A stretch of 64,000 bases of DNA from Ardenticatenales bacterium (GTDB taxonomy: Bacteria; Chloroflexota; Anaerolineae; Epilineales; Epilineaceae): the NCBI GenBank assembly GCA_020853525.1, contig JADYYS010000050.1:18672-82671 (forward strand), read 5' to 3'. How positions within the stretch are numbered: the first letter of the stretch is position 1; the number at the start of each line of letters is the position of its first letter. This document shows positions 46,920-64,000 of this stretch, in pieces. Position numbers and translations under genes: made by a program. Below the pieces are notes generated by a model. It was not told the DNA's origin, did not search any database, and saw only the letters and a program-made list of their open reading frames with translations.

Positions 46920-47519
46920 CTATGCCTCGCCCGCCTCGGCCGAGAGCGCATCAGCCAACGCGAGATACCGGTCCTGCGATCCGTCGCACGCCTCGGTTTG
47001 CGCAATGTCCTCGAATGCGGCGGCCACCCGCGCCTGGGCAGCAGGATCGATGACTTGTCGAGCCATGGGAAAGAGCACATGGTCCTCCTTGGCGATGTGC
47101 GATCGCAGCAAGGCCACGTAGTCTCTTGCACACCCCACCAGCTCGGCGCGCACGGTCGCATCGCCCGCGTCCATCGCACGGGCAGCCTCCCGCAGCGCAC
47201 GGATCAGCGATCGTCCCTCATCGTGCTCGTGCAGCATGACGGACACCGGGCCGCCGGCCGGAACGCCGGCGGCCGTGATCGCCGGGAACAGGACATGCTC
47301 CTCCTTGAGGTGGTGGCAGCCATCGGCAAATCCCGCCGCGAAGTCGGCACAGTCCGCGAAGAACCGCGCTGGAACCGGTTCGCCGCGATCCATGCGATCC
47401 GCCGCCAGCGCCAGGGCGTCCAGCACCCGTTCGATCACGCGGTGATCCTGCATGAGCCCGTCGGTAATGTCCACGCACCCCTCCTGTCCAAGATTGTTCT
47501 CGACGGCCGATAACCACAT
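46920..47519 (-). CDS. Hemerythrin-like (HHE cation-binding) domain protein. Last gene of the long minus-strand array.
   Basis: Repeated H...E/HHLKEEH and HIAKEDHVLFP pairs. Confidence 0.7.
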   Translation of the reverse strand: MWLSAVENNLGQEGCVDITDGLMQDHRVIERVLDALALAADRMDRGEPVPARFFADCADFAAGFADGCHHLKEEHVLFPAITAAGVPAGGPVSVMLHEHDEGRSLIRALREAARAMDAGDATVRAELVGCARDYVALLRSHIAKEDHVLFPMARQVIDPAAQARVAAAFEDIAQTEACDGSQDRYLALADALSAEAGEA

Positions 47520-47534
47520 GCCCCGGCTGCGTCG

Positions 47535-48587
47535 TTAGTTCTGCCGCCCCGGGGTCAGCGCTCCGTTTGCGCCTGCCCGGGCGGGAACCTGGCGCAGCGC
47601 ATGTTGGAGCGCCCGCTCCGTAAACACACGGGCGACCTGGCGTCGATAGCCGGGCGGCAGATCCACGTTGTCCATTGGACGAATCGCGCGGTGGACGGCG
47701 TCGGCAGCAGCCGACAGCCGTTCCGCGGTTGGCACATGACCGGTCAGTATGACCTCGGCCTCCGCGATCCGCAGCGGCCGCGATGCCACCGCTCCGACGA
47801 CCACCCGTGCGTTCTCGCATTCGTCCTTGGCCATCCGTAGCGCAACGGCCACACCAAGTGACGGGAAATCGAACGATGCCCGCGGGCGCAGCTTCATGTA
47901 GCTGGCACACACGCCCGTCGGCCGCAGCAGCTGCACGTCCACCACGATCTCACCGGCGCTGAGTGTCAGATGCGACAACCCGTCGTCGCGGTAGAGTGCT
48001 TCGGCCGGGATCACGCGTTCCCCACGCGGTCCGGCGATCCGGATCTGAGCATCGAGGGCGATCATCGCCGGCGCAAGATCCGACGACACGGCCGCCCAAC
48101 ATCGGTCATCCCCCGGCGCAACGCGGCAGACGTCGCCGGTGCACTTGAGGCAATCGCCGGCGGCTTCGCGCCACAGCGGTGAGCGGTTCACATACGTGCA
48201 TCGCGTGTCGAGGCAGAGATTCCCGCCCAACGTACCCATCGAGCGCAGTGTCGGCGTGGCGATAAGGCTGGCCGCGTGCCCGATCACCGGGAAGTGCCGC
48301 CGGAGCACTGGCTGCCTTGTCAGCTCGGCAATGGACGTCAGCGCGCCAAGCGTCAACCCGGAGCCGTCGCGTACTGTGGCTTCCGCGGCGGTCCGAATAC
48401 CGGACAGCTCAGGTACACCCGCCAGGGCAACCAAGTAGCGGGGGCTGAGCTGGCCGCGCTTCAGCAGTGGCAGCAAGTCGGTGCCGCCGGCGAGGAGCTG
48501 CGCCTCGGCGCCAAGTTCAGCCAGCAGCCCGACCGCCTCCGACAGGCTGCGCGGCGCGAGATAGCGGAAGGAGGGCAGGTGCAACAC
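47535..48587 (-). CDS. FAD-binding (medium) subunit of a molybdenum hydroxylase, with an inserted Cys-rich loop (candidate [4Fe-4S] site as in 4-hydroxybenzoyl-CoA reductase HcrB).
   Basis: FAD motifs LLAGGTDLLPL and GTLGGNL. Insert LCLDTRCTYVNRSPLWREAAGDCLKCTGDVCRVAPGDDRCW carrying 6 Cys. Four of them are spaced 16/8/9 apart. Confidence 0.8.
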   Translation of the reverse strand: MLHLPSFRYLAPRSLSEAVGLLAELGAEAQLLAGGTDLLPLLKRGQLSPRYLVALAGVPELSGIRTAAEATVRDGSGLTLGALTSIAELTRQPVLRRHFPVIGHAASLIATPTLRSMGTLGGNLCLDTRCTYVNRSPLWREAAGDCLKCTGDVCRVAPGDDRCWAAVSSDLAPAMIALDAQIRIAGPRGERVIPAEALYRDDGLSHLTLSAGEIVVDVQLLRPTGVCASYMKLRPRASFDFPSLGVAVALRMAKDECENARVVVGAVASRPLRIAEAEVILTGHVPTAERLSAAADAVHRAIRPMDNVDLPPGYRRQVARVFTERALQHALRQVPARAGANGALTPGRQN

Positions 48588-48596
48588 GTGAGCGGC

Positions 48597-50993
48597 CTAG
48601 AGCTGAGGCGCGCCGGCCGGCGGCTCGACGACCGTTAGAGGCGGGTACGCGATGTCGGGGAACCGGCGAGGACCGTGACGGGCCGGCTGCCCGCGGGCCT
48701 GGCGATCGAGCGCGCGCAGAACTTTGTCGGGCGTGATCGGCACCTCGTCCACGCGCACCCCAACCGCATCGTAGACCGCATTGGCCACGGCCGGTGGCAC
48801 CGGCAGCAGCGGTCCCTGGCCCACCTCCTTCGCCCCGAACGGACCCTCTCGGTCGTCCGTTTCCACCAACAGGCAGTGCACGATCGGCATGTCCAGGGCA
48901 GTGGGCGTCTTGTAGTCCAGAGCGGTTGGGCCGGCATGCAGCGGACCGCGGAACGACTGCTCCTCCCACAGCGCCTCTCCAAGACCCATGTATACCCCGC
49001 CTTCGATCTGTCCCTCCACCTGCGTCGGGTTGAGCGCCCGACCGCCGTCGTGGGCCAGCCAGACTTCAGACGGCACCACCTGGCCCGTTTCTGCGTCGAC
49101 GTTCACATGCACCACGCACGCCGAGTAGCTGTAGGCAGGGCTCGGGCCCACACCGGCCCCCTTGTAGGGTCCGGCCAGCGGCGGCGGCGCATAGGTGCCG
49201 CTGGCGGCCAGCACGGCCCCGGATGCCTGGGTCAGCTGCAGCGCATCCGGCCACGACATGATCGGTGATCGCTCATCGCGGAGCGCGACTTGGCCGGAGT
49301 GCAGGATCAGACGGTGGGTCGGCAGGTGCAACTCGCGACCCACCGCGCACAGTACTTGTTCGCGCAGATTCTCGGCGGCGCGCAGCGCGGCATTGCCCAT
49401 CATGAACGTGACCCGACTCGAGTAGCTGCCCAGATCCACGGCCGCCAACGCCGTATCGGCCGTATCAAGCTGGATATCGACCAAGTCGAGACCGAGAACC
49501 TCAGCGACGAGGCTGGCCAGCACCGAGTCCGAGCCCTGGCCGATATCGGTGGCGCCGCAGGCCACGTGAACGGTGCCGGTGCGGTCCGCCTGGATGTGGA
49601 CGGTGGTGTGTGGCAGCCCGTTCCAGTAGATCGGCAGGGCGGCACCCGATAGGTAGCAGCTGGCAGCCAACCCAACGCCTTCGCCCCGAGGCAGCCGGCG
49701 GTGCTTGTCCAGAAAGCCCGAGGCATCCGCGACCCGCTCCAAGCACGCGCGGAGACCACAGCTCGTGACCCGCAGGTGGTTCACCGTCACGCTGTCTTCG
49801 GCAACAAGGTTCTTCAGCCGAATCGCCAATGGGTCGAGCCCAAGGTCCTCGGCCAACTTGTCCAGGAGCACCTCCAGCCCGAATCGCGGCTGGGGCGTGC
49901 CGTGACCGCGCTTCGGGCCGCACGGTGGCTTGTTCGTGAACACCCGCGCGCCCTCGAAACGATATGCCGGCAGGCGATAGGTGGCCGGCGGCAGGGCGCC
50001 ACTGTAGTACGTGGACGCTACCCCGTAACTGCCATATGCTCCACCGTCCAACACCGTGCGTACGTGCAGACCGGTGAGCGTGCCGTCGACACGCGCGGCT
50101 GCGCGCAGCTGCACGTGCATCGGGTGTCGGCCGCGGTGGCTGTAGAAGACCTCCTCGCGGGAAAGTCGGCACTTCACCGGCCGGCCGGTGATCATGGCAA
50201 GCCGGGCCGCGGCCACCTCGTGCGGCAGCGCCTCGGTCTTGCCGCCGAAGCCGCCACCGATGACCGAAGCGACCACCCGCACCCGGCGCTCGGGTAGTTG
50301 GAGGGCCTTGGCCAACGCCCGCTGGACGTAGTGCGGGGTTTGGGTGGACGACCATAGCGTCAGCCGCCCGTCCGGGCTGTACTCGGCCACGGCCGCATGC
50401 TCCTCCAGCGCCAGATGGTTGCTGCCGCCATAGAAGAACAGATCCTCGCGCACATGGGCCGCCGCTTCGAACGCAGCCTCCACTGCACCGAACTCCAGCG
50501 CAACGCGCTTGTGGACGTTGTTGGCCTTGCCGTTGGCGTGGATCGGATCACCCGTGGCCGACAAGGCCTCGTCAACCGTCATGCAGGCCGTGAGCACGTC
50601 GTAGTCGACGACGATCAACCCCATGGCGTGGTCGGCCGTCTCCTCATCCTCTGCAGCAATGGCCGCCACCGGATCGCCGACGAAGCGCACCTTGTCCACA
50701 GCGAGACCGTGCTCGTCCTGGCTGACGGGTAGAATGCCGTACGGCACCGGAAGGTCCGCACCGCTGATCACGGCCGTCACCCCAGGCACGGCCAACGCAC
50801 GGGTCGCGTCGATGGCTCGGATGCGCGCGTGCGCATGCGGACTGCGCAGCAGTCGGGCATAGAGGAGATGGGCGAAGGGCAGATCGTCCGCGTAGTTTGC
50901 CCGGCCCGTCACCTTGGGCCAAGCATCCACCTTCGAACGACGGTGGCCGATGATCGTGAAGTCCGGAGTCCGCGTCGAGCCGGTCGAGCTCAT
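48597..50993 (-). CDS. Molybdopterin-binding large subunit of the xanthine-dehydrogenase / CoxL / HcrA family.
   Basis: MSSTGSTRTPDFTIIGHRRSKVDAWPKVTGRANYADD...GGGFGGK...; it lacks the form-I CODH VAYRCSFR motif. Its ATGA start overlaps the small-subunit stop. Confidence 0.85.
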   Translation of the reverse strand: MSSTGSTRTPDFTIIGHRRSKVDAWPKVTGRANYADDLPFAHLLYARLLRSPHAHARIRAIDATRALAVPGVTAVISGADLPVPYGILPVSQDEHGLAVDKVRFVGDPVAAIAAEDEETADHAMGLIVVDYDVLTACMTVDEALSATGDPIHANGKANNVHKRVALEFGAVEAAFEAAAHVREDLFFYGGSNHLALEEHAAVAEYSPDGRLTLWSSTQTPHYVQRALAKALQLPERRVRVVASVIGGGFGGKTEALPHEVAAARLAMITGRPVKCRLSREEVFYSHRGRHPMHVQLRAAARVDGTLTGLHVRTVLDGGAYGSYGVASTYYSGALPPATYRLPAYRFEGARVFTNKPPCGPKRGHGTPQPRFGLEVLLDKLAEDLGLDPLAIRLKNLVAEDSVTVNHLRVTSCGLRACLERVADASGFLDKHRRLPRGEGVGLAASCYLSGAALPIYWNGLPHTTVHIQADRTGTVHVACGATDIGQGSDSVLASLVAEVLGLDLVDIQLDTADTALAAVDLGSYSSRVTFMMGNAALRAAENLREQVLCAVGRELHLPTHRLILHSGQVALRDERSPIMSWPDALQLTQASGAVLAASGTYAPPPLAGPYKGAGVGPSPAYSYSACVVHVNVDAETGQVVPSEVWLAHDGGRALNPTQVEGQIEGGVYMGLGEALWEEQSFRGPLHAGPTALDYKTPTALDMPIVHCLLVETDDREGPFGAKEVGQGPLLPVPPAVANAVYDAVGVRVDEVPITPDKVLRALDRQARGQPARHGPRRFPDIAYPPLTVVEPPAGAPQL

Positions 50994-51559
50994 CCCTGCG
51001 CCCCACTGCGCGGGTGCGATGCGCCACCCGCGACCATACGAGCAGCCTGCCGCACGGCTGCGACGATGCTGGCATAGCCTGTACATCGGCAGAGATTGCC
51101 GGCTAGCGCAGCGCGAACTTCGGCTTCGGTTGGATCGGCATTGTCGGCCAACAAGGCGGCGGCGGTAAGCAGCATTCCGCCGGTACAGTAGCCGCACTGG
51201 GCAGCACCGCGGTCGACGAAGGCCACCTGCAACGGGTGGGGCTCCGCCGTGGTACCCAACCCTTCCACCGTGGTGACGGTACGTCCCTCGACGGAGGCAA
51301 GGAGCGTAAGACATCCCAGCCGCGGCTGACCATCCACCAGCACGGTGCAGGCACCGCACTCACCCAACTCACAGCCATGCTTGGTGCCGGTCAGGCCTAG
51401 GTCCTCGCGCAGCGCCTCGAGCAACGTGCGGTGCGCCGGCGCACGCAGCATGCGCGGCACCCCATTTACGGTCATGTCGACGGTGAGCCACCGATCGCCT
51501 GGAGCAGAGTCGTCGACCTGCAGAGCGGGTGGCACGGTTGCCACGATCGTGGACTTCAT
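50990..51559 (-). CDS. [2Fe-2S]-binding small subunit (CoxS/HcrC-like) of the molybdenum hydroxylase.
   Basis: CELGECGACTV and QCGYCTGGM...CRCTGY. Confidence 0.85.
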   Translation of the reverse strand: MKSTIVATVPPALQVDDSAPGDRWLTVDMTVNGVPRMLRAPAHRTLLEALREDLGLTGTKHGCELGECGACTVLVDGQPRLGCLTLLASVEGRTVTTVEGLGTTAEPHPLQVAFVDRGAAQCGYCTGGMLLTAAALLADNADPTEAEVRAALAGNLCRCTGYASIVAAVRQAARMVAGGASHPRSGAQG

Positions 51560-52677
51560 CCCGCTTCCCCTGACGCTGTCGTCGCCGGCCGGCGCGTGGC
51601 CCGAATCTGCTCGACCACCAAGTCGCCGGCAGCCGTGGTGGCGAGCCCGCTGTCGCTGTCGACGGATGGAATGCGCCGGCTCACCAGACAGCGCTCGATC
51701 GCACCCTCGATGATCGCCGCTCCATCCTTTTCTCCCAGGTAGTCCAGCATCATGCCGACCGCGGCGATCGCACCCAGAGGGCTGGCCACGTTCTGGCCCG
51801 CGATCGTCGGTGCCGAGCCATGAATGGGCTCGAACATCGCGGTGCGGCCCGGGTGGATGTTGCCCGAGGCGGCGATCCCCATGCCGCCCTGCAGCGCCGC
51901 CCCGAGATCCGTGACGATATCGCCGAAGAGATTCGTCGTGACGATCACATCGAACATCTCGGGCGTCTTGACCATGTACATGCAGCAGGCATCCACGTAC
52001 GCGTGATCCGTGTGCACGTCGGGGAATGCCTCAGCCACCTCGGCAAACACCCGCGTCCAGATGGACTGCGGCCGGATGGCATTGGCCTTGTCCACCAACG
52101 TCACCTGCGGTTGTCGGCCGCCCATGCCGCGCGCCCGCGCGCGCTCTCGAGCCAGCTCGAAGGCATAGCGGATCACGCGTTCGGTGCCCTTGTGCGTGTA
52201 GACGCCCGAAACGATCGCCACCTCATCGGCGGTGCCAACCTTCAGGTGGCCACCGATCTGCGCATAGACATCCTCGGTGTTCTCACGGACCACCACGAAG
52301 TCGATATCACCCACGCGCTTGCCCTTCAACGGGCACAGGTGCTCCGCCAGCAATCGGACCGGCCGCAGGTTGACGTACAGGTCCATGCCGAATCGGAGGC
52401 TGAGGATCACCGAGCGCTCCACCAGGCCGGGTTCGACCGCGGGGTGACCGATCGCGCCGAGTAGCACGGCGTCCAGCGTGCGCCACTCGTCCACGATCCG
52501 CTCTGTCACGAGCTCGCCCGTAGCCAGGTAGTGCGCGCCGCTGTATGGATACTCGAACAGCTGGTAATGAAAGCCCGTCACTTCAGCTGCTGCGGCGAGC
52601 GCCTTCAGGCCTTCCCTGGTCACCTCGGGACCGATGCCGTCCCCGGGGATCACGCCGATCCGGTAGCCCGTCCTCAC
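51556..52677 (-). CDS. Isopropylmalate / homoisocitrate / tartrate dehydrogenase family (beta-decarboxylating dehydrogenase).
   Basis: IGVIPGDGIGPEV, NLFGDIVTDLGAAL...GGMGIAASGN. Confidence 0.85.
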   Translation of the reverse strand: MRTGYRIGVIPGDGIGPEVTREGLKALAAAAEVTGFHYQLFEYPYSGAHYLATGELVTERIVDEWRTLDAVLLGAIGHPAVEPGLVERSVILSLRFGMDLYVNLRPVRLLAEHLCPLKGKRVGDIDFVVVRENTEDVYAQIGGHLKVGTADEVAIVSGVYTHKGTERVIRYAFELARERARARGMGGRQPQVTLVDKANAIRPQSIWTRVFAEVAEAFPDVHTDHAYVDACCMYMVKTPEMFDVIVTTNLFGDIVTDLGAALQGGMGIAASGNIHPGRTAMFEPIHGSAPTIAGQNVASPLGAIAAVGMMLDYLGEKDGAAIIEGAIERCLVSRRIPSVDSDSGLATTAAGDLVVEQIRATRRPATTASGEAG

Positions 52678-53885
52678 GGTGCCTCCGGGCCGGCGATGGC
52701 GGCGTGCTTTGCGGCGGCCGGGGCGTGCGCGCCGGCTCCTGCCAGGAGGCCCCGGGCGATGACCAATCGCTGTATCTGAGCCGTACCCTCATAGATCTGC
52801 ATGATCTTGGCGTCGCGCATCCACTTTTCAACAGGGTACTCTCTGGAGTAGCCATAGCCGCCCAGCACTTGAACAGCATCCGTCGTGACGCGCATGGCGA
52901 CGTCGGCCGCAAAGGCCTTCGCCATGCTGCTCTCGGTCGTATGCGACAGGCCTTGATCGGCCAGCCAGGCAGCGCGCCAAGCCAAGAGTCGAGCCGCCTC
53001 GATGCTGGTCGCCATGTCCGCCAGAAGGGTGCCGATCGCCTGAAACTGACCGATGGGTCGCCCAAATTGACGCCGCTCACCCGCGTACTGGCAGGCGAAC
53101 TCAAAGGCGGCGCGAGCGATCCCCACTGCTCCGGCAGCGATCTGGGCACGGGTACGATCCAGCGTGCGCATTGCGATCCGAAAACCGTCCGCCTCCCCGC
53201 CCAATCGATTGGCCGCCGGAACCCGAACGTCCTCGAGGTACAGCGACGCCGTGTGCGATGCGCGGATGCCCAGCTTGCGTTCGCCTCGACCGGCGGTCAG
53301 CCCGGCGCGGTCGCCGTCCACGATGAATGCGGCGATCCCGTCCGCCCCACGGCCGGGTGCAACGGTGGCAAACAGGACATAGGTGTCGGCAATACCGCCA
53401 TTGGTGATGAAGCACTTGCTGCCGTTGAGCACGTATTCCGCGCCATCGCGCCGCGCCGTCGTGGTCAGGGCGGAAGCATCGGAGCCGGCGGCCGGCTCGG
53501 TCAAGGCGAAGGCGCCCAACCGAACTGCGCGCGGGTCGCAGAAGCGCGGTATGTAGCGTTCCTTTTGCTCCGGTGTGCCTGACAGTAGGATGGGCGTTGC
53601 CGCCAGCAGCGTGCCCCCCAGCACCGTGGCCACGCCGGCACAGCCCCAGTACAGCTCCTCGTCGACGACGCAACGGCCGAACACATCCGCCACTCCGCCG
53701 CCGCCATATGCCTCAGGCAGAGCATACGCGGTGAGCCCGACCTCGGCCGCCTGCCGGAGCACCTCCCAGGGCACGGTTTCTTCCTCGTCGAAGCGCGGCG
53801 CCCCCGGACGGATCACCTCGAGCGCAAACCGGTGCGCCAAGCTGCGCAGGGCGCGGTGCTCATCGGATAGGGCGAACCCGATCAT
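52674..53885 (-). CDS. Acyl-CoA dehydrogenase, embedded inside the chain-elongation module.
   Basis: GAFALTEPAAGSDA, YVLNGSKCFITNG, QVLGGYGYSREYPVEKWMRDAKIMQIYEGT. Confidence 0.85.
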   Translation of the reverse strand: MIGFALSDEHRALRSLAHRFALEVIRPGAPRFDEEETVPWEVLRQAAEVGLTAYALPEAYGGGGVADVFGRCVVDEELYWGCAGVATVLGGTLLAATPILLSGTPEQKERYIPRFCDPRAVRLGAFALTEPAAGSDASALTTTARRDGAEYVLNGSKCFITNGGIADTYVLFATVAPGRGADGIAAFIVDGDRAGLTAGRGERKLGIRASHTASLYLEDVRVPAANRLGGEADGFRIAMRTLDRTRAQIAAGAVGIARAAFEFACQYAGERRQFGRPIGQFQAIGTLLADMATSIEAARLLAWRAAWLADQGLSHTTESSMAKAFAADVAMRVTTDAVQVLGGYGYSREYPVEKWMRDAKIMQIYEGTAQIQRLVIARGLLAGAGAHAPAAAKHAAIAGPEAP

Positions 53886-54396
53886 TCGTGCGCCGCCAGG
53901 CGCGCTTGGACATAGCTGTGCAGTCCACCCAGCGCCATGAGCTGAAGCAGAAACTCCGGGAACGGCTCGGCCTGGTATGTCGCGCCGGTCGTCAGGTCGT
54001 GGATCACGCCGCTGGCTGGTTCGATGGCCACGGTGTCGCCGTCGGCGATGGCGGTGGCAGCAGCCGGGCACTCGAAGATGGGCAAGCCCAGATTGATGGC
54101 GTTGCGGAAGAAGATTCGGGCGAACGACACCGCCACGACGCCGGCGACTCCGGATGCCTGCAGCGCGATGGGTGCCACCTCCCGGGAGCTTCCACACCCA
54201 AAGTTGATGCCGGCTACAACGATATCGCCCGGCGCCACGCGACCGGCGAACGACGGATCGGCATCTTCCATGCAGTGCTCGGCGAGGCGGGCCGGATCAG
54301 CGGTGTTGCAGTGTCGCGCCGGAATGATGGCGTCGGTGTCGATATGGTCACCGAACTTCCAAGCCCGGCCCTGCAGTCTACCCAGCGGCTTAGCCA
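53882..54396 (-). CDS. Aconitase-family small subunit (LeuD / homoaconitase small subunit-like).
   Basis: MAKPLGRLQGRAWKFGDHIDTDAIIPARH...GINFGCGSSREVAPIAL. Confidence 0.8.
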
Positions 54397-57032: not shown

Positions 57033-57068
57033 GCGCCCTTCGAAACCGGGCCGTGGTCTGGCCGTGGC

Positions 57069-58154: not shown

Positions 58155-58825
58155 AAGACACCCCCGCTGTCTGGCTGGGTGGCGGCACGCATCGCCGGTT
58201 CCCGCCCCAGCGATCCTCCAAGTGCGACCCCCAAGGAAAAGGCACGGCGGTTCAACTCCAGGAAGCGCTCAGGCACCAGCTTCGTCAGGAGATCGGACCA
58301 AAGGTCAACCGGAATGGGAAGGTGGGTGGACAGGAGCCCCAGTACCAGCACGTTCGCCACGCGGCCATTTCCTAACTCTCGCTCCGCGAGGTCGGTCGCC
58401 GGCACCTCGATCACACGCAGCCCATGGCTGCGCAGGACGCTCACCGCATCGTGGGGGTAGCGGGACACGGCGTCCGAGCCGGCGGAGACGGGTGGGATCT
58501 CGTGCGCATTGACAACGATCGCCCCGCCAGGTCGCAGGAAGTGTGCGAACCGCACAGCCTCCAACTTCTCCATCCCGACCACCAGGTCAGCCTGGCCAAC
58601 AGGGATGAGGGGCGAGTGCACTTGGGTTCCGAAGCGGACGTGGCTATGGACGCTGCCGCCCCGCTGTGAGACGCCATGCACTTCCGTCTGGGTGGCATCG
58701 TGACCGGCGGCGATCGCCGCGCGTGCGATGACCTCGCTGACCAAGAGCACTCCCTGACCACCGACACCGGAAACCAGCACGCTGGTGATCGTCGGTTCGG
58801 TCGCATTCGGCACGGCAGTCATCGT
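58151..58825 (-). CDS. iorB: Indolepyruvate:ferredoxin oxidoreductase beta subunit.
   Basis: MTAVPNATEPTITSVLVSGVGGQGVLLVSEVIARAA is the pyruvate/ketoisovalerate oxidoreductase gamma-type domain. Confidence 0.8.
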   Translation of the reverse strand, partial: TMTAVPNATEPTITSVLVSGVGGQGVLLVSEVIARAAIAAGHDATQTEVHGVSQRGGSVHSHVRFGTQVHSPLIPVGQADLVVGMEKLEAVRFAHFLRPGGAIVVNAHEIPPVSAGSDAVSRYPHDAVSVLRSHGLRVIEVPATDLAERELGNGRVANVLVLGLLSTHLPIPVDLWSDLLTKLVPERFLELNRRAFSLGVALGGSLGREPAMRAATQPDSGGVL

Positions 58826-60609
58826 TCTCCACCGTCCGCCGGGTCTGGCATGGACGGTACGGCGTGGCCGTTGCCGACGAGCGGCAGGATGGCATCGTAG
58901 CGGCACAATTGCTGACAGACGGTGCAAGTCACACAGGCGGCGGCATCGATCGTCGGCAATCCGTGCGGTCCCGAAGTAATGGCCGGACACTGGATGCGGT
59001 AGCAGGCGTTGCATTCGGTGCACAGGCTCTCGTCCACCACCAGCGGTTCGAGATCGCGGGCGCGCATCTCGGGTAGCAGCTGACAGGGACCGCGAATGAT
59101 CGCCACGGATGGTCCATCATGGGCCAGCGCGGAGAGCACCGCCCGACGAATGGCGGACCGGTCCCATGTATCCACGACCACGACGTCCTTCACTCCAACA
59201 GCCCTGACCAATGCCTCAAGGTCCAGAACTGGGGCATCGACGCCGGCCATGTCGTAGCCGGCGACTGGGTTGGGCTGTTGGCCAGTCATACCGGTCGTAC
59301 CGTTATCCAGGATCAGTAGCGTGATCGGCGTTCGGGTGTAGACAGCATCGATCAGACTGGGAATGCCCGTGTGAAGAAAGGTCGAATCGCCGATGACTGC
59401 CACGCTCCGCTTCACACCGGCACGAAGGAGGCCGATGGCGTTGCCGATACTGGCGCCCATGCAGAACGTCAGGTGTTCGGCCTCGTAGGGCGGCAGCGCC
59501 CCCATCGTGTAACAGCCGATGTCGCCGGCCACGGTCACCCTCAATTGGCCCAGAGCATCGAATACCGTCCGGTGACCACAGCCGACACAGAACATCGGCG
59601 GACGGGAAGGCGCCGGTATGGACGTATTGAGGGCTCGCGCGAACACACGCCCATCGATCGCCTCGGCCAAGCGCTCGGGGCTATACTCGCCACAGATGCC
59701 GAACAGGTCCTTTCCGATGATGTTGGTAGCTCCCGCAGCCCGCAGCTGCTCCTCGATGAACGGGTCGCCCTCCTCGACCACGTACACCGTTTCGTGGTCA
59801 CGACAGAAGGACAGCAGTCCTACCAGCGGTAGCGGGTACGTGAGTCCCAAGTCGAAGTAGTCGGCCTCGGGCAGTACCTCGCGGGCATAGGCACGCGAGA
59901 TGCCGTTGGCGACGACCCCGATTGGTCGGCCGGTCACCGACACCCGATTGAATGGCGTCGTCTCGGCATAGATCGCCAAGCGGCCCAGTCGATCCTCCAG
60001 AAGCGGCCGCAGCTGCCGACCGTAGATGGGAACCGAGAATCGCCTTGGATCGGGGTCGAACGCCACCGGCGGCACCTCGCGGCGCCCGCCCGTCGAGACG
60101 CGCCCCTTGCAGTGTGCGGTACGCGTCGTCGTCCGAACCATCACCGGCGTACCAAACGCCTCGCTCAACTCGAAGGCCTGCCGCATGAACTCGAGGCACT
60201 CCTGCGGCGTACCTGGTTCGACGATGGGCACCCGTGCCATTCGGGCGAGATAGCGGTTGTCTTGCTCGTTTTGGGAGGAGTGCATGCCAGGGTCGTCCGC
60301 TGAGACGACCACGAAACCGCCGTTCGTTCCGGAATAGGGAAAGACCATGAACGGATCGGCTGCCACATTGAGGCCGACGTGCTTCATGGTCACGAGCGCC
60401 CGCCCGCCGGCAACAGCGAAGCCGATGCCCTCCTCGAAGGCCACCTTCTCATTTGTTGACCAATGGGTGTCCACCTCGGGGTAGCCCACCAGGGACTCGA
60501 GTATCTCGGTGCTGGGGGTACCGGGGTAACCGGTCGCGTAGCGCACACCCGCCTCCCACGCTCCACGCGCCAGCGCTTCGTTTCCACTCAAGAAGTCACG
60601 CATGCCCAT
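58819..60609 (-). CDS. iorA: Indolepyruvate:ferredoxin oxidoreductase alpha subunit (TPP + 2x[4Fe-4S]).
   Basis: MGMRDFLSGNEALARGAWEAGVRYATGYPGTPSTEILE, ...GDSTFLHTG..., the ferredoxin motifs CTECNACYRIQCP and CVTCTVCQQLC. Confidence 0.85.
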   Translation of the reverse strand: MGMRDFLSGNEALARGAWEAGVRYATGYPGTPSTEILESLVGYPEVDTHWSTNEKVAFEEGIGFAVAGGRALVTMKHVGLNVAADPFMVFPYSGTNGGFVVVSADDPGMHSSQNEQDNRYLARMARVPIVEPGTPQECLEFMRQAFELSEAFGTPVMVRTTTRTAHCKGRVSTGGRREVPPVAFDPDPRRFSVPIYGRQLRPLLEDRLGRLAIYAETTPFNRVSVTGRPIGVVANGISRAYAREVLPEADYFDLGLTYPLPLVGLLSFCRDHETVYVVEEGDPFIEEQLRAAGATNIIGKDLFGICGEYSPERLAEAIDGRVFARALNTSIPAPSRPPMFCVGCGHRTVFDALGQLRVTVAGDIGCYTMGALPPYEAEHLTFCMGASIGNAIGLLRAGVKRSVAVIGDSTFLHTGIPSLIDAVYTRTPITLLILDNGTTGMTGQQPNPVAGYDMAGVDAPVLDLEALVRAVGVKDVVVVDTWDRSAIRRAVLSALAHDGPSVAIIRGPCQLLPEMRARDLEPLVVDESLCTECNACYRIQCPAITSGPHGLPTIDAAACVTCTVCQQLCRYDAILPLVGNGHAVPSMPDPADGGER

Positions 60610-60692: not shown

Positions 60693-61568
60693 TCACTGGC
60701 TCAGCCCCACGACGACACCGGTGTGCTCGGGCGCATCCATCAAGACGCGATCCACGAATGCACTCGCACTGGGGGTCAGCGCCTCGTGATAGCGCTGGAA
60801 GAGCGTGGTGGCACGGTGGCCAAGCCATCCTTCGGGGAGCAGATCGTTGGGTAGGTGAGGGTCAACGTAGGGGAAGGACAGGAAGCTGAGCGTAAGCTGG
60901 AAACGGCGGACGAACGCAGTCGACGCATCGCTGCCGCCGTCGCGGGGCTGGCCACTGCTGTTGCTCTCGAACTCGGATCCGAACTGGCGGATAAACGTCT
61001 CGTAGGCCGCGTTCAGCTGCTGGAGGTCCCAGGCCCGCGCCACGAGCTGATGCGGTTGTCCGAAGCCGTCATGTTGTGCGGTGAACAGGTCCACGTACTG
61101 CTGAGCGCCCACCGATTCGAGCCAGCCATGTAGCTCCCGAGGTGGCTCGTAGGGCGAGATCCAGGTGCCGGCACTGAGGTGCCCAAAGCCAAGCCACGTC
61201 AGGCGCTGACGCAGACGATCCCGCAATTGGTGGGTTCGCTCGGGGATCGTGTATGTCACCAGGTGCCAGCGCCCGTCCCAGGGCTCACGACGGGGTTGAA
61301 AGAGGTGCTGCGCACCCTCGTCCAGAATCCGGATGCCCTTGTCCGTCAGTCGATAGTAGCTGTGACGACCGGATCGGCGCCCGAGAAGCCACCCGCTTCG
61401 CGACATACGCGATAGGGTCGAGCGTACCGCCTGTGCGCTCAGTCCGAGTGGGGCGAGCAGGCTGATGAGGCTGCCGGTCCACACTTCATCCACTCGATGG
61501 CGCAAATGGTCACCGTAGAGCGTGAACACGAGCTGATGGCTCCGCTTGGAGGGCAATCTGCTTATCAT
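60693..61568 (-). CDS. paaX: PaaX-family transcriptional regulator (phenylacetyl-CoA-responsive repressor family).
   Basis: SKRSHQLVFTLYGDHLRHRVDEVWTGSLISLLAPLGLSAQAVRSTLSRMSRSGWL is the PaaX N-terminal wHTH. C-terminal PaaX_C-like region. Confidence 0.8.
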   Translation of the reverse strand: MISRLPSKRSHQLVFTLYGDHLRHRVDEVWTGSLISLLAPLGLSAQAVRSTLSRMSRSGWLLGRRSGRHSYYRLTDKGIRILDEGAQHLFQPRREPWDGRWHLVTYTIPERTHQLRDRLRQRLTWLGFGHLSAGTWISPYEPPRELHGWLESVGAQQYVDLFTAQHDGFGQPHQLVARAWDLQQLNAAYETFIRQFGSEFESNSSGQPRDGGSDASTAFVRRFQLTLSFLSFPYVDPHLPNDLLPEGWLGHRATTLFQRYHEALTPSASAFVDRVLMDAPEHTGVVVGLSQ

Positions 61569-61581
61569 ATGTCACAGCAAG

Positions 61582-61606
61582 ATGTGCCGTGGCAAAAGCG
61601 GCACAT
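61582..61606. promoter_or_regulatory. Inverted repeat ATGTGCCG-N9-CGGCACAT in the paaX upstream region. Candidate operator.
   Basis: Seen in the sequence. Confidence 0.3.
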
Positions 61607-61689
61607 ATTGAGTATGGAGCACGAGATAGACATTGTCAACCTCCCGTTGGCTCGCTCCGGCGCCTCGCTCCTGGCAAGACCACTCTGGC

Positions 61690-62880
61690 CTACTCCACTT
61701 TGAGGACCAGAGCTGCCGCGCTGTCGCCCGCCGAACAGCCGACGAACAGGCCGTACCCGCCGCCGGACATCGCCAGCGTTTCGATGAGTTCGATCACGGA
61801 ACGCAGTCCCGTCGGCGCCTGCGGGTGGCCCCAGACCAGCGAGGAGCCGAAACGGTTCATCGCGGTCAGATCCAGCCCGAGCGCGCGGCTGAGGTAGATG
61901 TCGTTGACAGCAAACGGGTTGTGGGTGGTAACTGCCGTCAGATCCCCGGCCTTGACGTCGGCCTCAGCAAGAGCGCGGACCGCCGCCGGTACGATGGCCT
62001 GGGGCATGTATCCAGGCTTGGCGCGTGCCTCGGCATAACTCACGAGCTGAACGGTGATGCCGTCGTGACTGAGTTCGGCCGCCCGCGACGCAGTGGTTAC
62101 CACGGCGCCTGCATTGCCATCGGCCGGATGCGTTTGACCGCCTGCGGTCACCGTCCCACCCGGCATCACAGGCTTGAGTTGGTTCAGCCCGTCGACGGTC
62201 GTCGGATGAATACCTTCATCGCCCTCGACCGTGATCGACCGCCGACCGTTGCCGGAAACTTCCAGAGGGATCGGCATGTACCGTCGCTGGAAGGCCCTAT
62301 CATCGGCCAGAGAGTCAAGGTATTGCGCATAGCGCAAGAGCACCACCTCGTGCTGCTCCACCGTGGTGATCCCCGCTTCCCTCGCCACGTTCTCTGCGGT
62401 CTGGAGCATCGTCCCGCCGGTCGACGGGTCGAAGCCGAAGTTGTCCCAGACCCAATCCTCCGCCAACGGCCGTGCCCCGGGTCCCGCATTGGGCCACACC
62501 AAGTGCGGGCCATTGCTTGTGCGATCGGCAGCGATCACGAGCACACAGCGATCTGCAGCCGTCTCGACCTCACCGGCGGCCACGGCCAACGCCCGCGCCG
62601 AGGTGGCGCATGCCTGGCTGACCACCGTCCCTGTGACCTCGCCCGCTCCCAAGAGCCCCGTCAGCCACGGTCCGCCGTAGAAACCGTGCGGCGACGGCAC
62701 CGTCGTACCGAGCACCAGTCCATCAAGCACGCTCGCCGGGATGGCGGACTTGGTGAGAGACTGGCTCGCCACTTCGGCTGCAAGCTGGAGCGGATGAAGA
62801 CCGGCAAAGCTGCCCTGCCAGCGGCAGAACGGGGACGACCAGTACGCGCCGTACGGGATGAACACACGGTCGTAACGCAT
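61690..62880 (-). CDS. Thiolase-family protein (acetyl-CoA C-acyltransferase-like).
   Basis: VSQACATSARAL (Cys nucleophile), GHPQAPTG, and GCSAG near the C-terminus. Confidence 0.8.
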   Translation of the reverse strand: MRYDRVFIPYGAYWSSPFCRWQGSFAGLHPLQLAAEVASQSLTKSAIPASVLDGLVLGTTVPSPHGFYGGPWLTGLLGAGEVTGTVVSQACATSARALAVAAGEVETAADRCVLVIAADRTSNGPHLVWPNAGPGARPLAEDWVWDNFGFDPSTGGTMLQTAENVAREAGITTVEQHEVVLLRYAQYLDSLADDRAFQRRYMPIPLEVSGNGRRSITVEGDEGIHPTTVDGLNQLKPVMPGGTVTAGGQTHPADGNAGAVVTTASRAAELSHDGITVQLVSYAEARAKPGYMPQAIVPAAVRALAEADVKAGDLTAVTTHNPFAVNDIYLSRALGLDLTAMNRFGSSLVWGHPQAPTGLRSVIELIETLAMSGGGYGLFVGCSAGDSAAALVLKVE

Positions 62881-62895
62881 CCGTCCGCGCCCGCT

Positions 62896-63657
62896 TCAGA
62901 TCCGCGCGCCAGCGTCCACGACAAGACACTGGCCGGTGATGTAGCTGGCGTCATCGCTGGCCAGGAACGCATGGACCGCGGCAATCTCGTCCGGTTCGGC
63001 CAGCCGTCCGAACGGGATCTTGGCCACTAGGCCGGCCATGACCGGGTCGGGAATCGCCTCGGTCATGCGTGTACGCACGCCGCCCGGCGCCACGGCATTC
63101 ACGTGGATGCCGTGGCGACCCAGCTCGAGCGCCAAGGTGCGGGTGAGCCCGATGATTCCCGCCTTGCTGGCGGAGTAGTTCGCCTGACCGATGTTGCCGA
63201 AGGCCGAGACCGAGGCAGTGTTGACGATCTTGCCGTACCGTTGGCGGATCATGGGCACGGCTGCCGCCTGGCAGCACAGGAATGTACCCTTGAGGTTGAC
63301 CGCCAAGACGTCGTCCCAGTCGGCTTCGCGCATGCGCTGGGGCTCGCCATCCTTGATGCGAACTGTGATGGCATCACGGATGATTCCGGCGTTGTTGACG
63401 AGGATGTCCAGCCGTCCCCAACCCGCCAGCACTCCGTCAACCATCGCCTCCACCTCACTCCGCGAGGTGACATCGCCCGGAGCAAGGCGTGCCTCACCCC
63501 CTGCTTCACGCACCAACGCCACCGTCTCCTCAGCACCAACGGCGTCCAAATCGTTGACCGCGACATGTGCCCCCTCAGCGGCCAACCGTAGTGCCGTGGA
63601 ACGACCGATACCACCGCCACTGCCCGTGATCAACGCCACCCGATTCTCGAGCCTCAC
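62896..63657 (-). CDS. SDR-family oxidoreductase (3-hydroxyacyl-CoA / 3-oxoacyl reductase-like).
   Basis: TGSGGGIGRS, NNAG, and the YSASKAG catalytic motif. Confidence 0.85.
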   Translation of the reverse strand: MRLENRVALITGSGGGIGRSTALRLAAEGAHVAVNDLDAVGAEETVALVREAGGEARLAPGDVTSRSEVEAMVDGVLAGWGRLDILVNNAGIIRDAITVRIKDGEPQRMREADWDDVLAVNLKGTFLCCQAAAVPMIRQRYGKIVNTASVSAFGNIGQANYSASKAGIIGLTRTLALELGRHGIHVNAVAPGGVRTRMTEAIPDPVMAGLVAKIPFGRLAEPDEIAAVHAFLASDDASYITGQCLVVDAGARI

Positions 63658-64000
63658 CCCGACCTCCTCATCATGAGCAGCCAGTGGCCATCCATGACGG
63701 TCTGGTCGTCCTGGTTCACCACGACAGTGTTCACCGTCACCAGACCGCGACGGCCATCCGACGTCTCCTTCATGGCGGTCACCTCCAACTCCAGATGCAC
63801 GGTGTCGGCCAAGTGCACCGGGCCGCGGTAGTGCAGCATCTGCTCCATGAGCGCCAACGTGGTGCCCTCGAACACGCCCAACTGGTTGGCCAGCCCGGTG
63901 GCGATGGCTGCGATCAACATGCCATGTGCTACACGGCCACCAAAGGGGGTGCTTGAGGCAAAGGATTGGTCCGTATGCAATGGGTTGAAGTCCCCGGACA
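63654..64000 (-). CDS. MaoC-like (R)-specific enoyl-CoA hydratase, C-terminal part. The N-terminus lies beyond the right edge of the window.
   Basis: ...FGGRVAHGMLIAAIATGL... is a hot-dog fold. Its stop overlaps the SDR start. Confidence 0.65.
   Translation of the reverse strand, partial: SGDFNPLHTDQSFASSTPFGGRVAHGMLIAAIATGLANQLGVFEGTTLALMEQMLHYRGPVHLADTVHLELEVTAMKETSDGRRGLVTVNTVVVNQDDQTVMDGHWLLMMRRSG

Follow-up and report, generated by a model that had tools for sequence, protein, structure and literature searches.

Organization of the array

The 64,000-nucleotide stretch analysed here (the window), from an Ardenticatenales (Chloroflexota) MAG, carries an uninterrupted array of 16 genes on the minus strand between positions 46,920 and 64,000. 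All 16 ORFs are present and each gene family named in the original prediction was confirmed by Pfam and NCBIfam profile searches; the observation of a single-strand array with this content holds. With corrected start positions, 4-bp overlaps are found at the MaoC/SDR, IorA/IorB, IorB/membrane protein, LeuD/ACAD, ACAD/LeuB, LeuB/HcrC and HcrC/HcrA junctions, and an 8-bp overlap at LeuC/LeuD (eight overlapping junctions in total), whereas the synthase and LeuC genes are separated by 0 bp. The other spacers measure 9-57 bp, except for the two largest, of 121 bp (thiolase-PaaX) and 83 bp (PaaX-IorA). The next gene downstream (PCuAC, 46177-46773) lies on the plus strand, so that 46920 is a true boundary.

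The array begins with a MaoC-type (R)-specific enoyl-CoA hydratase (63654->64000; PF01575, 66 bits), whose 5' end lies outside the window and whose orthologs, at 54-85% identity, occupy the same position in the related loci (numbered with the prefix L) L005, L009, L012, L017, L018 and L020-L022. It is followed by a short-chain dehydrogenase (SDR; 62896-63657; adh_short_C2, 226 bits), which resembles FabG and 3-hydroxyacyl-CoA dehydrogenases but is below the equivalog cut-offs, and by a divergent thiolase (61690-62880) with Thiolase_N and Thiolase_C domains, which scores 168 bits to TIGR01930 (cut-off 240) and only 107 bits to the best PDB thiolase. Both genes are syntenic in relatives. The PaaX-family regulator (60693-61568) contains all three PaaX Pfam domains and scores 229 bits to TIGR02277 (cut-off 264.5); PaaX-like genes are also present in L005, L006, L009, L011, L015, L017 and L021. 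Upstream of paaX, in the largest intergenic gap (61583-61639, minus strand), we found a promoter-like site, TTGACA-17-CATACT (61639-61611), followed by a perfect inverted repeat, ATGTGCCG-N9-CGGCACAT (61605-61583). Although this is the only sigma-70-like match in 46-64 kb, one match is no more than chance expectation (1.8 expected), the repeat is not conserved in 89 related loci, and no canonical PaaX operator is present.

Downstream of paaX lie the alpha subunit of an indolepyruvate (arylpyruvate):ferredoxin oxidoreductase (IOR) (IorA, 58819-60609; TIGR03336, 605 bits against a cut-off of 651) and its beta subunit (IorB, 58151-58822; PF01558, and NF005322 at 217 bits against a cut-off of 237). 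The following gene (57069-58154) encodes an orphan DoxX-like membrane protein without Pfam or NCBIfam hits. Its GC3 of 0.80 and its overlap with IorB suggest a real gene, but it is absent from all 89 related loci, and a search of 5.8 billion proteins returned only the protein itself and three weak hits, two of them DoxX-family; it is a lineage-specific insertion and not part of the conserved unit. The last gene of the array encodes a hemerythrin-domain protein (46920-47519; PF01814, 88 bits) with only weak matches to the Fe-S repair proteins DnrN and YtfE; a hemerythrin occupies the same position in L006, L007 and L009 and is also present in L018.

The chain-elongation module and its embedded acyl-CoA dehydrogenase

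The synthase (55713-57011), which is 100% identical to an Ardenticatenales MAG protein, is a LeuA/HCS-like 2-oxoacid:acetyl-CoA Claisen synthase of a distinct family and a candidate arylmethyl-malate synthase. It had been stipulated in advance that firm clustering with the citramalate or homocitrate synthases of Ile/Lys biosynthesis, with the module as the organism's only Leu/Ile/Lys set, would count against the original prediction. Instead, the protein is neither LeuA nor a homocitrate synthase: it has only an HMGL-like domain and, at about 200 bits, falls below every LeuA, CimA, NifV and HCS cut-off. Its catalytic residues are conserved and its motif is RDGLQ, but it lacks both the HCS and the IPMS pocket residues, carrying A99, T163 (Met in other family members), V165, C193 and H253, and it has no Arg or His to bind a distal carboxylate. 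Ala99 replaces the His of HCS and the Leu of IPMS and is shared with Ala73 of the cyanobacterial benzylmalate synthase HphA, the specificity-determining residue in PMC12961565. The pocket residues are only suggestive, however; four of the five HphA specificity positions differ.

The LeuC-like isomerase large subunit (54390-55712) scores 611.3 bits to TIGR02083 (cut-off 610.65) and is syntenic in L005-L009, L013, L018, L019, L021 and L087. The LeuD-like small subunit (53882-54397; TIGR02084, 209 bits against a cut-off of 246) has a non-canonical specificity loop (ARHCNT), reading HCNT against YLVY in the M. jannaschii isopropylmalate/citramalate isomerase (IPMI) small subunit (3VBA) and YLRT in the homoaconitase small subunit (2PKP). 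The ARHC motif is kept in synthase-linked LeuD of Chloroflexota and Gemmatimonadota. The LeuB-like 3-alkyl/aryl-malate dehydrogenase (decarboxylating; 51556-52677) scores 408.8 bits to NF002898 (cut-off 393), and its substrate loop, VERSVILSLR, compared with the T. thermophilus IPMDH, keeps the Glu and two hydrophobic residues of isopropylmalate dehydrogenases.

Between LeuD and LeuB lies an acyl-CoA dehydrogenase (ACAD; 52674-53885) with all three ACAD domains. It is closest to medium-chain ACADs, the best PDB matches being 1UKW (383 bits) and mammalian MCAD (about 336 bits), compared with 251 and 181 bits for glutaryl-CoA dehydrogenases and 254 bits for isovaleryl-CoA dehydrogenase (IVD). 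Phenylpropionyl-CoA is used as a substrate in published MCAD activity assays. The position of the ACAD gene is kept in L005-L009, and in L087 it lies beside the synthase.

A 4-hydroxybenzoyl-CoA-reductase-type Mo enzyme

The three genes downstream of LeuB encode a Mo enzyme of the 4-hydroxybenzoyl-CoA reductase (4-HBCR) type. The HcrC-like [2Fe-2S] small subunit (50990-51559) contains Fer2 and Fer2_2 domains and has its best NCBIfam match to TIGR03193 (169 bits against a cut-off of 258). The HcrA-like molybdopterin large subunit (48597-50993) scores 824 bits to TIGR03194 (cut-off 995) and 620 bits to 1RM6_A, against 272 bits for the next family. The HcrB-like FAD subunit (47535-48587) scores 204 bits to 1RM6_B; its [4Fe-4S] insertion aligns, all five cysteines of the Thauera loop are conserved, and the FAD_binding_5 match is stretched by the insert, covering 215 residues for 166 profile positions. 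The enzyme groups with 4-hydroxybenzoyl-CoA reductase and does not group with CO or nicotinate dehydrogenases, an outcome singled out beforehand as contrary to the original prediction.

Conservation of the gene order

The core order PaaX-IorA-IorB-synthase-LeuC-LeuD-ACAD-LeuB-HcrCAB recurs in three other genomes (L005, L006/L007 and L009) at 74-87% synthase identity; the array is not a chance arrangement. In L005 and L009, BcrBC/AD-like genes of an MBR-type class I benzoyl-CoA reductase lie directly upstream of MaoC-SDR-thiolase, one L009 subunit scoring 488 bits to the 3-methylbenzoyl-CoA reductase subunit MbdO against 114 bits to a 2-hydroxyacyl-CoA dehydratase. The benzoyl-CoA reductase itself is not visible in our window, which also holds no aminotransferase and no aryl-CoA ligase. 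IorAB sits directly upstream of the synthase in 15 of 15 Chloroflexota loci, always among benzoyl-CoA or arylacetate genes; these loci also hold Dch-, Had- and Oah-like genes, PaaK-like ligases, an aldehyde:ferredoxin oxidoreductase (AOR), PaaX and, in L001, phenylphosphate synthase and UbiD genes. However, ACAD and HcrCAB are missing from most Anaerolineae versions of the cluster. A Methylomirabilota locus keeps LeuB-LeuC-LeuD-synthase-ACAD-IorA-IorB.

Discussion

As a tentative interpretation, we propose that this is a PaaX-regulated catabolic operon of a facultatively anaerobic Ardenticatenales bacterium, which appears to convert aryl-C3 and aryl-C2 acids derived from tyrosine or phenylalanine into benzoyl-CoA without alpha-oxidation. 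In this model, the synthase condenses acetyl-CoA with (4-hydroxy)phenylpyruvate to give a 2-(arylmethyl)malate, which the LeuCD-like isomerase and the LeuB-like dehydrogenase would convert to 2-oxo-4-arylbutyrate plus CO2. The adjacent IorAB would then oxidatively decarboxylate this acid to 3-arylpropionyl-CoA, from which the embedded medium-chain-type ACAD would form (4-hydroxy)cinnamoyl-CoA, and MaoC hydratase, SDR and thiolase would release acetyl-CoA and (4-hydroxy)benzoyl-CoA, acetyl-CoA therefore acting catalytically. Finally, the HcrCAB-type Mo/FAD/Fe-S enzyme would remove the para-hydroxyl, and in close relatives the MBR-type class I aryl-CoA reductase, encoded immediately upstream and just beyond this window, would dearomatise benzoyl-CoA. 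Arylacetates could enter through CoA ligation and reductive carboxylation by an IOR; related Anaerolineae loci carry a second IorAB with PaaK-like ligases and a transporter. The proposed route needs nine functions and all nine are encoded, leaving only the hemerythrin and the lineage-specific membrane gene unassigned.

Whereas the gene identities, overlaps, conserved order, signature residues and genomic context are direct observations, every substrate (none was assayed), the direction of IOR, the effector of the regulator and the assignment of the MaoC-SDR-thiolase trio to the side chain are inferences. The interpretation originally put forward, namely elongation of an arylpyruvate, conversion to 3-arylpropionyl-CoA by IOR, beta-oxidation to (4-hydroxy)benzoyl-CoA and removal of the hydroxyl, agrees with our best reading and is supported in part. 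Conserved synteny, the class I aryl-CoA reductase genes of close relatives, the LeuD loop and the ACAD type favor a single functional unit.

Two caveats apply. First, synthase homologs at 56-61% identity and with an identical pocket are common in Acidobacteriota and Gemmatimonadota, where they mostly stand alone beside unrelated genes (FHA/PP2C, gltA, M28 peptidase) outside any aromatic context and none of 51 has IorAB directly upstream; the 2-oxoacid of the family may therefore be a general metabolite. LeuC and LeuB, moreover, reach the NCBIfam isopropylmalate cut-offs. Second, in relatives the MaoC-SDR-thiolase trio lies between the ring-pathway genes Dch/Oah and Had, and could instead oxidise 3-hydroxypimelyl-CoA rather than the side chain. 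The suggestion that the opposite, biosynthetic direction is equally possible is argued against by the irreversibility of the synthase reaction, which fixes the elongation direction.

Literature searches for this combination of enzymes found no description of such a route, from phenylalanine- or tyrosine-derived keto acids to benzoyl-CoA. In sulfate reducers, the route to benzoyl-CoA is stated to be unclear: these organisms lack PadB and PadEFGHI, and induce IorAB plus a hydratase/dehydrogenase/thiolase set on phenylacetate and phenylpyruvate (PMC5109826).

Organization of the gene array

The region 46920-64000 contains 16 consecutive ORFs on the minus strand, and profile searches against Pfam and NCBIfam confirm every gene family named in the original prediction. 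In order, these are a MaoC hydratase (cut by the window end), an SDR and a thiolase; a PaaX-family regulator; IorA and IorB; a membrane protein with no family match; an HMGL-like LeuA/HCS-type synthase (55713-57011); LeuC-like and LeuD-like subunits; an acyl-CoA dehydrogenase (ACAD); a LeuB-like dehydrogenase; the 2Fe-2S, Mo-pterin and FAD subunits of a xanthine-oxidase-family enzyme; and a hemerythrin-domain protein. The observation of a single-strand array therefore holds. With the starts of LeuD, ACAD and HcrA corrected to 54397, 53885 and 50993, seven junctions are 4-bp overlaps, one is an 8-bp overlap and one is 0 bp, while the two largest spacers are 121 bp (thiolase-PaaX) and 83 bp (PaaX-IorA). 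The next gene downstream is on the other strand.

The only sigma-70-like match in 46-64 kb lies in the 121-bp spacer upstream of paaX, although one match is no more than chance would give, and no intergenic terminator-like site was found. Between this promoter-like site and the paaX start, a perfect 8-bp inverted repeat, ATGTGCCG-N9-CGGCACAT (61583-61605, minus strand), may be an operator, but it is not conserved in the 89 related loci compared. The regulator contains all three PaaX domains but scores 228.9 bits against the curated cut-off of 264.55, and no canonical PaaX operator (TGATTC-N-GAATCA) is present in the window; taken together these features do not settle whether it is a PaaX repressor in the strict sense, and its effector was not examined. 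Scans of the window against Rfam and for tRNAs found nothing relevant.

The rest of the window is unrelated housekeeping. SCO1/SenC and PCuAC copper chaperones and a DUF420 protein (44920-46773 and 19189-19953) lie next to the operon and point to a cytochrome oxidase, so the host is probably a facultative aerobe despite carrying oxygen-sensitive aryl-CoA enzymes; the terminal hemerythrin may relate to this. The operon has lower G+C (64-69%) and lower GC3 (0.73-0.83) than most of the left half of the window (1-30000; 68-77% G+C, GC3 around 0.9), which is compatible with acquisition by horizontal transfer. A separate low-GC island at 31200-36800 (55% against about 70%) carries an HTH antitoxin-like ORF (31222-31593), an Eco57I/TaqI-type DNA methyltransferase (31849-33270) overlapping a 260-aa ORF with no family match (33267-34049, possibly the endonuclease), an AbiEi antitoxin-like ORF (35276-35902) and a nucleotidyltransferase with an AadA_C domain (35947-36768), and looks like a small mobile defence or toxin-antitoxin island.

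Conservation of the array in other genomes

The synthase is 100% identical to a protein of an Ardenticatenales (Chloroflexota) MAG. The order PaaX-IorA-IorB-synthase-LeuC-LeuD-ACAD-LeuB-HcrC-HcrA-HcrB recurs in three other genomes, represented by locus L009 (87% synthase identity), locus L005 (74%) and loci L006/L007 (74%), and a hemerythrin ends the array in L006/L007 and L009. In L005 and L009, the MaoC-SDR-thiolase trio is preceded by two HGD-D and two BcrAD genes, and this four-gene set is also present in two further loci, L001 and L090. One L009 subunit scores 488 bits to the 3-methylbenzoyl-CoA reductase subunit MbdO (PDB 9G87), against 114 bits to a 2-hydroxyacyl-CoA dehydratase, and this is therefore a class I (ATP-dependent) aryl-CoA reductase of MBR/Bcr type; the same scores led us to reject the reading of these upstream genes as a phenyllactyl-CoA dehydratase, which would make cinnamoyl-CoA without elongation. 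The comparison was made in L009 and not in the window, which most likely stops just short of the same genes. A search for sequence of this genome beyond 64000 found no record of the thiolase, and only a 4.5-kb Logan contig carries the identical synthase, so close relatives were used instead. The membrane gene (57069-58154, minus strand), inserted between IorB and the synthase with a 4-bp overlap, is absent from every related locus; a homolog search found only the protein itself and three weak hits at 26-34% identity, two of them DoxX-family, and we regard it as a lineage-specific insertion.

A scan of species-representative genomes found at least 561 loci for this synthase family, of which 80 were retrieved. 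The 16 window proteins were compared with 89 loci by tblastn and non-redundant cases were counted. IorAB lies directly upstream of the synthase in 15 of 15 Chloroflexota loci and in 0 of 51 loci of other phyla; SDR and thiolase lie within 10 kb upstream in 8 of 12 and 0 of 42, respectively; and LeuC lies downstream in 5 of 12 and 1 of 34, respectively. The Chloroflexota loci also carry Oah-, Dch- and Had-like genes, the class I reductase, PaaX, an aldehyde:ferredoxin oxidoreductase, an ABC transporter, PaaK-like ligases, a second IorAB about 45% identical to the window IorA and, in L001, phenylphosphate synthase and UbiD genes. Two IorAB pairs occur in the Anaerolineae loci L003, L011, L017, L024, L090 and L091, one always adjoining the synthase (60-64% identity to the window IorA) and the second (about 45% in L024) next to PaaK-like ligases and an ABC transporter, which suggests two IOR specificities. 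A Zn-ADH (best match Had) and an Amidohydro_2 protein with no NCBIfam match almost always precede IorAB-synthase in Anaerolineae (L012, L017, L018, L021, L022, L090, L091, L001 and L003) but are missing from the window's version; we have no explanation for the amidohydrolase. In two groundwater or reactor Chloroflexota (L018, 15292-17361; L021, 14728-16821), one uninterrupted ORF joins an AMP-binding acyl-CoA ligase to a LeuD (Aconitase_C) domain and lies between LeuC and LeuB, where the window has LeuD followed by the ACAD; it may be a true fusion.

Outside Chloroflexota, a Methylomirabilota locus keeps LeuB-LeuC-LeuD-synthase-ACAD-IorA-IorB. Two Gemmatimonadota loci have LeuC-LeuD with the synthase; LeuB precedes LeuC in one of them (L045), and tblastn also places a LeuB match just upstream in the other (L042). 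In one unclassified MAG (L047, 3525-6793) the synthase is followed directly by HcrC- and HcrA-like matches (50-52% identity) without LeuCD, the ACAD or LeuB in between, although ORF calling did not resolve these genes cleanly. In contrast, the homologs of Acidobacteriota, Gemmatimonadota and others (L026-L089), at 56-61% identity and with identical pocket residues, mostly stand alone; the family is common in these aerobic soil phyla. Annotation of the Acidobacteriota and Gemmatimonadota neighbourhoods gave heterogeneous, mostly unrelated genes and no functional clue, the neighbours including FHA/PP2C, citrate synthase, an M28 peptidase and a rhomboid protease; the synthase lies near a divergently oriented citrate synthase gene in 11 loci and behind an FHA/PP2C gene in 21. 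No function is assigned to the family there, which is the main caveat for the substrate assignment, and the Acidobacteriota genomes with a stand-alone synthase were not examined for a LeuD of the type found here. The ACAD and HcrCAB are confined to the Ardenticatenales-like loci, plus one Methylomirabilota locus for the ACAD.

Signatures of the individual enzymes

The three Mo-enzyme subunits have the Pfam domain sets of the xanthine-oxidase family and are encoded in the order S-L-M with 4-bp and 9-bp junctions. In the comparison with PDB 1RM6 that had been proposed in advance as a test, the large subunit scores 620 bits to 1RM6_A against 272 for the next family, and the FAD subunit aligns with 1RM6_B through the 4-HBCR-specific Cys-rich insertion that binds an extra [4Fe-4S] cluster, with all five cysteines of the Thauera loop conserved. 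All three subunits fall below the curated NCBIfam equivalog cut-offs (TIGR03194, 824 against 994.55; TIGR03195, 283.7 against 404.55; TIGR03193, 168.9 against 257.8), although these are still the best matches by a wide margin. It is a 4-hydroxybenzoyl-CoA-reductase-type dehydroxylase, whose exact substrate is not proven.

The synthase, whose comparison with the LeuA and NifV families had likewise been named beforehand, has only an HMGL-like domain, without the C-terminal LeuA_dimer regulatory domain. It scores 200.8 bits to the best LeuA model (cut-off 517) and 189 and 185 bits to homocitrate synthase models of the LysS/NifV/AksA kind (cut-offs 413 and 463). The catalytic residues of the Claisen-condensing LeuA/HCS superfamily, namely the Arg/Asp plus two His metal and oxoacid site, the Glu base, the Thr and the second-subunit His of the G-x-H motif (R34, D35, H229, H231, E167, T197 and the GVH His), are invariant in 120 homologs, and RDGEQ is replaced by RDGLQ. 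Of the five specificity positions listed in PMC12961565, HphA has Ala, Asp, Ala, Met and Ser (Ala73, Asp157, Ala159, Met186 and Ser242), HCS has His, Arg, Thr, Ser and His, and IPMS has Leu, Glu, Ser, Asn and Glu, while this family has Ala99, Met163 (Thr in the window protein), Val165, Cys193 and His253. The His and Arg that bind the distal carboxylate of 2-oxoglutarate (TtHCS His72 and Arg133) are thus Ala99 and Thr163, leaving no partner for a distal carboxylate, and the IPMS residues are all replaced. Ala99, invariant in 120 of 120 and 81 of 81 homologs, matches HphA Ala73, which the paper identifies as the key determinant; the position was mapped through the HCS and IPMS alignments given there, and relatedness to HphA itself was not tested by direct sequence comparison. 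The other four HphA specificity residues are not shared, and the same pocket is kept in the homologs from other phyla.

The LeuD specificity loop reads ARHCNT, against ARYLVY in the M. jannaschii isopropylmalate/citramalate isomerase and GPYLRT in the homoaconitase, and ARHC is conserved in synthase-linked LeuDs of Chloroflexota and Gemmatimonadota. LeuC just passes its curated cut-off (611.3 bits against 610.65) but LeuD does not (209 against 245.85), so that these scores and the unusual loop neither place LeuCD among the isopropylmalate isomerases nor exclude it from them. LeuB passes an isopropylmalate dehydrogenase cut-off (NF002898, 408.8 bits against 393), and its loop VERSVILSLR keeps the Glu and hydrophobic residues of the Thermus enzyme, although family membership does not fix the alkyl or aryl group. 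IorAB has the expected two-subunit architecture, with TPP and Fe-S domains in alpha and a POR domain in beta, but scores just below the cut-offs (605.4 against 650.9 and 216.8 against 237); assignment to indolepyruvate:ferredoxin oxidoreductase is thereby neither secured nor contradicted, and the substrate range was not measured. The ACAD is closest to Thermus ACAD 1UKW (383 bits) and mammalian medium-chain ACAD (about 336 bits), compared with 251 and 181 bits for glutaryl-CoA dehydrogenases and 254 bits for isovaleryl-CoA dehydrogenase, and phenylpropionyl-CoA has been used as a substrate in published MCAD activity assays. The thiolase is very divergent.

Proposed pathway and its significance

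The module appears to handle a 2-oxoacid with an uncharged, probably bulky substituent. In Chloroflexota it is inseparable from an arylpyruvate-type oxidoreductase and lies within gene sets for arylacetate uptake and activation and for benzoyl-CoA dearomatisation, under a PaaX-type regulator, and none of these loci shows Pad-type alpha-oxidation genes. The simplest pathway that uses every enzyme once is the one originally predicted: arylpyruvate plus acetyl-CoA gives arylmethyl-malate, which is converted to 2-oxo-4-arylbutyrate; IOR gives 3-arylpropionyl-CoA; the ACAD, MaoC, SDR and thiolase give (4-hydroxy)benzoyl-CoA plus acetyl-CoA; and the Hcr-type enzyme gives benzoyl-CoA, which passes to the class I reductase. 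The families, gene order and residue patterns were read from the sequences, whereas the substrates in this scheme are inferred, as no enzyme was assayed. In relatives the MaoC-SDR-thiolase trio sits between ring-pathway genes and may act on 3-hydroxypimelyl-CoA; the rest of the genome was not examined for a separate canonical leuA/leuCD/leuB or for padBCD/padEFGHI. Because the Claisen synthase step is effectively irreversible, the elongation direction is fixed, which makes the catabolic reading more coherent than the reverse, biosynthetic one that the original prediction had held equally possible. The predicted interpretation is supported in part. Arylacetates could enter by ligation and reductive carboxylation through an IOR, a direction that occurs in methanogens and rumen bacteria and is consistent with the second IorAB and PaaK sets in related loci. 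We hold the specific mechanism of the pathway as a whole only tentatively.

All the enzyme families involved are known; their arrangement and the implied pathway, an anaerobic peripheral aromatic pathway feeding benzoyl-CoA, are not described in the literature that was searched. Literature searches on benzylmalate in anaerobic metabolism, on Hcr together with IOR and IPMS, on phenylpyruvate with benzoyl-CoA and IPMS, and on IOR with IPMS and PaaK returned no relevant description. In its boldest form, a catabolic "arylmethyl-malate shunt" may be the missing link between arylacetyl-CoA or arylpyruvate and benzoyl-CoA in anaerobes that lack the Pad alpha-oxidation enzymes. In this view, a dedicated LeuA-like synthase, a LeuCD-like isomerase with an HC-type loop and a LeuB-like dehydrogenase would add one carbon to (4-hydroxy)phenylpyruvate, a synthase-linked IOR would then make 3-arylpropionyl-CoA, and ordinary beta-oxidation would yield (4-hydroxy)benzoyl-CoA while regenerating the acetyl-CoA. 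Such a pathway has a substantial chance of being real, although we rate that chance as somewhat less than even. The route appears widespread in Anaerolineae, where IorAB and the synthase are always adjacent, and it would be the first example of 2-oxoacid chain elongation used for degradation of an aromatic compound.

How strict and facultative anaerobes without the Pad enzymes turn phenylacetate, phenylalanine or tyrosine into benzoyl-CoA is an acknowledged gap, and the step is called unclear in PMC5109826. The conserved operon offers a concrete and testable answer built entirely from known enzyme chemistries, and would extend 2-oxoacid chain elongation, known so far from biosynthesis (Leu, Lys, coenzyme B, glucosinolates, homophenylalanine), to catabolism. 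Anaerolineae and Ardenticatenales are abundant in sediments, aquifers and digesters, so the route could matter for protein and lignin-derived aromatic turnover. It also points to a large unannotated LeuA-like family (more than 560 loci in species-representative genomes) and a matching LeuD variant with new specificities, which could be useful for making homo-aromatic keto acids.

Alternative readings

The alternative that survives best, although we consider it unlikely, is that the elongation module works on a small aliphatic 2-oxoacid, e.g., pyruvate to citramalate to 2-oxobutyrate, followed by IOR-type oxidation to propionyl-CoA and ACAD action to acryloyl-CoA, or 2-oxoisovalerate to 2-oxoisocaproate to isovaleryl-CoA; its position beside aromatic genes would then reflect co-regulation or shared cofactors and not a shared pathway. 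An aliphatic substrate cannot be excluded. Family members with the same pocket stand alone in housekeeping-like contexts in other phyla, and the substrate may therefore be a general metabolite; LeuC and LeuB pass the isopropylmalate-type cut-offs; the best NCBIfam hit of the ACAD is acryloyl-CoA reductase AcrC, at 399 bits and below its cut-off; and the pocket residue at position 163 is a bulky Met in 119 of 120 homologs. However, Ala99 and Val165 are smaller than the Leu and Tyr that restrict citramalate synthase (LiCMS), the LeuD loop replaces Tyr-Leu with the smaller His-Cys, the partner oxidoreductase is IOR-type and not VOR or PFOR, the regulator is PaaX-type, and the synthase is tightly and exclusively linked with arylacetate and benzoyl-CoA genes in 15 of 15 Chloroflexota loci.

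Slightly less likely is a mosaic, in which IorAB plus the synthase module forms one unit of unknown role, MaoC-SDR-thiolase and the ACAD belong to the lower benzoyl-CoA pathway (3-hydroxypimelyl-CoA to glutaryl-CoA to crotonyl-CoA), HcrCAB serves 4-hydroxybenzoate or phenol catabolism, and no single linear pathway links them. In L018, L021 and L090 the trio or its neighbours are interleaved with Oah-, Dch- and Had-like genes; L001 joins the IorAB-synthase block to phenol genes; and HcrCAB and the ACAD are present in only a subset of loci. Against this, the ACAD sits between LeuD and LeuB with 4-bp overlaps on both sides, keeps that place in four genomes and lies next to the synthase in a fifth phylum, and it resembles medium-chain ACADs more than glutaryl-CoA dehydrogenases.

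A homocitrate-type or Re-citrate-type synthase acting on 2-oxoglutarate or oxaloacetate, with the module supplying 2-oxoadipate and glutaryl-CoA or 2-oxoglutarate, is improbable. The best PDB match is a homocitrate synthase (6KTQ, 124 bits), and His253 is shared with Sulfolobus HCS. The size of about 430 aa without a regulatory domain resembles that of Re-citrate synthases; such enzymes are reported in Chloroflexi (PMC3971608). We rejected for this cluster both the Re-citrate or TCA-branch reading (synthase, aconitase-like, IDH-like and OGOR) and the homocitrate/2-oxoadipate/glutaryl-CoA reading, because the synthase lacks the His/Arg pair, LeuD lacks the carboxylate-binding Arg of homoaconitase, and LeuB keeps the hydrophobic loop and the Glu that excludes carboxylate substrates in isopropylmalate dehydrogenases; no characterised Re-citrate synthase sequence was compared directly, and these readings are disfavoured by the residues but not excluded. 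The ACAD scores speak further against the glutaryl-CoA version, and Acidobacteriota homologs often lie next to a normal citrate synthase gene. A biosynthetic role in making homophenylalanine, homotyrosine or another homo-amino acid, suggested by the Hph-like enzyme trio and the shared Ala, is very unlikely, as no NRPS or aminotransferase is nearby and the trio is interleaved with an ACAD, an IOR and a beta-oxidation set and linked to aryl-CoA reductases and PaaX in several genomes.

Comparison with known systems

The Mo enzyme has the same three subunits and gene order as the 4-hydroxybenzoyl-CoA reductase HcrCAB of Thauera aromatica (PDB 1RM6), with matches of 620 and 204 bits and conserved [4Fe-4S] loop cysteines, but its sub-cut-off scores leave the exact phenolic acyl-CoA substrate unassigned. 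The step logic of ACAD, hydratase, dehydrogenase and thiolase, giving (4-hydroxy)benzoyl-CoA plus acetyl-CoA, is that of 3-phenylpropanoid beta-oxidation in Aromatoleum aromaticum EbN1, D. multivorans and Rhodopseudomonas palustris. Those systems start from free phenylpropanoate through a CoA ligase, whereas here the acyl-CoA would come from a 2-oxoacid:ferredoxin oxidoreductase, the hydratase is MaoC-type and the thiolase is very divergent.

The HphA/HphCD/HphB homophenylalanine-homotyrosine pathway of cyanobacteria (PMC12961565) uses a LeuA-like synthase without a regulatory domain, a LeuCD-like isomerase and a LeuB-like dehydrogenase to elongate an arylpyruvate by one carbon. Hph is anabolic and linked to NRPS products; here the trio is fused into a catabolic operon with IOR, an ACAD, a beta-oxidation set and an aryl-CoA dehydroxylase. 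The anaerobic phenylalanine/phenylacetate (Pad) pathway of Thauera and Aromatoleum (PadJ, PadBCD alpha-oxidation, PadEFGHI) shares the proposed start and end points, from arylpyruvate or arylacetyl-CoA to benzoyl-CoA, and a similar neighbourhood of benzoyl-CoA pathway genes. However, no Pad-type Mo enzyme or phenylglyoxylate oxidoreductase is found in the window or in the related loci, and the alpha-carbon problem would be bypassed by adding a carbon and then using beta-oxidation.

The need for such a route is supported by the sulfate reducers Desulfococcus multivorans and Desulfobacula toluolica (PMC5109826), which lack PadB and PadEFGHI and, on phenylacetate or phenylpyruvate, induce IorAB and a hydratase/dehydrogenase/thiolase set, the conversion to benzoyl-CoA being described by the authors as unresolved. 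Their clusters carry a phenylpyruvate reductase and a phenyllactate-dehydratase-like pair instead of a LeuA/LeuCD/LeuB module, which suggests a different way to reach cinnamoyl-CoA and two alternative ways to reach an aryl-C3-CoA.
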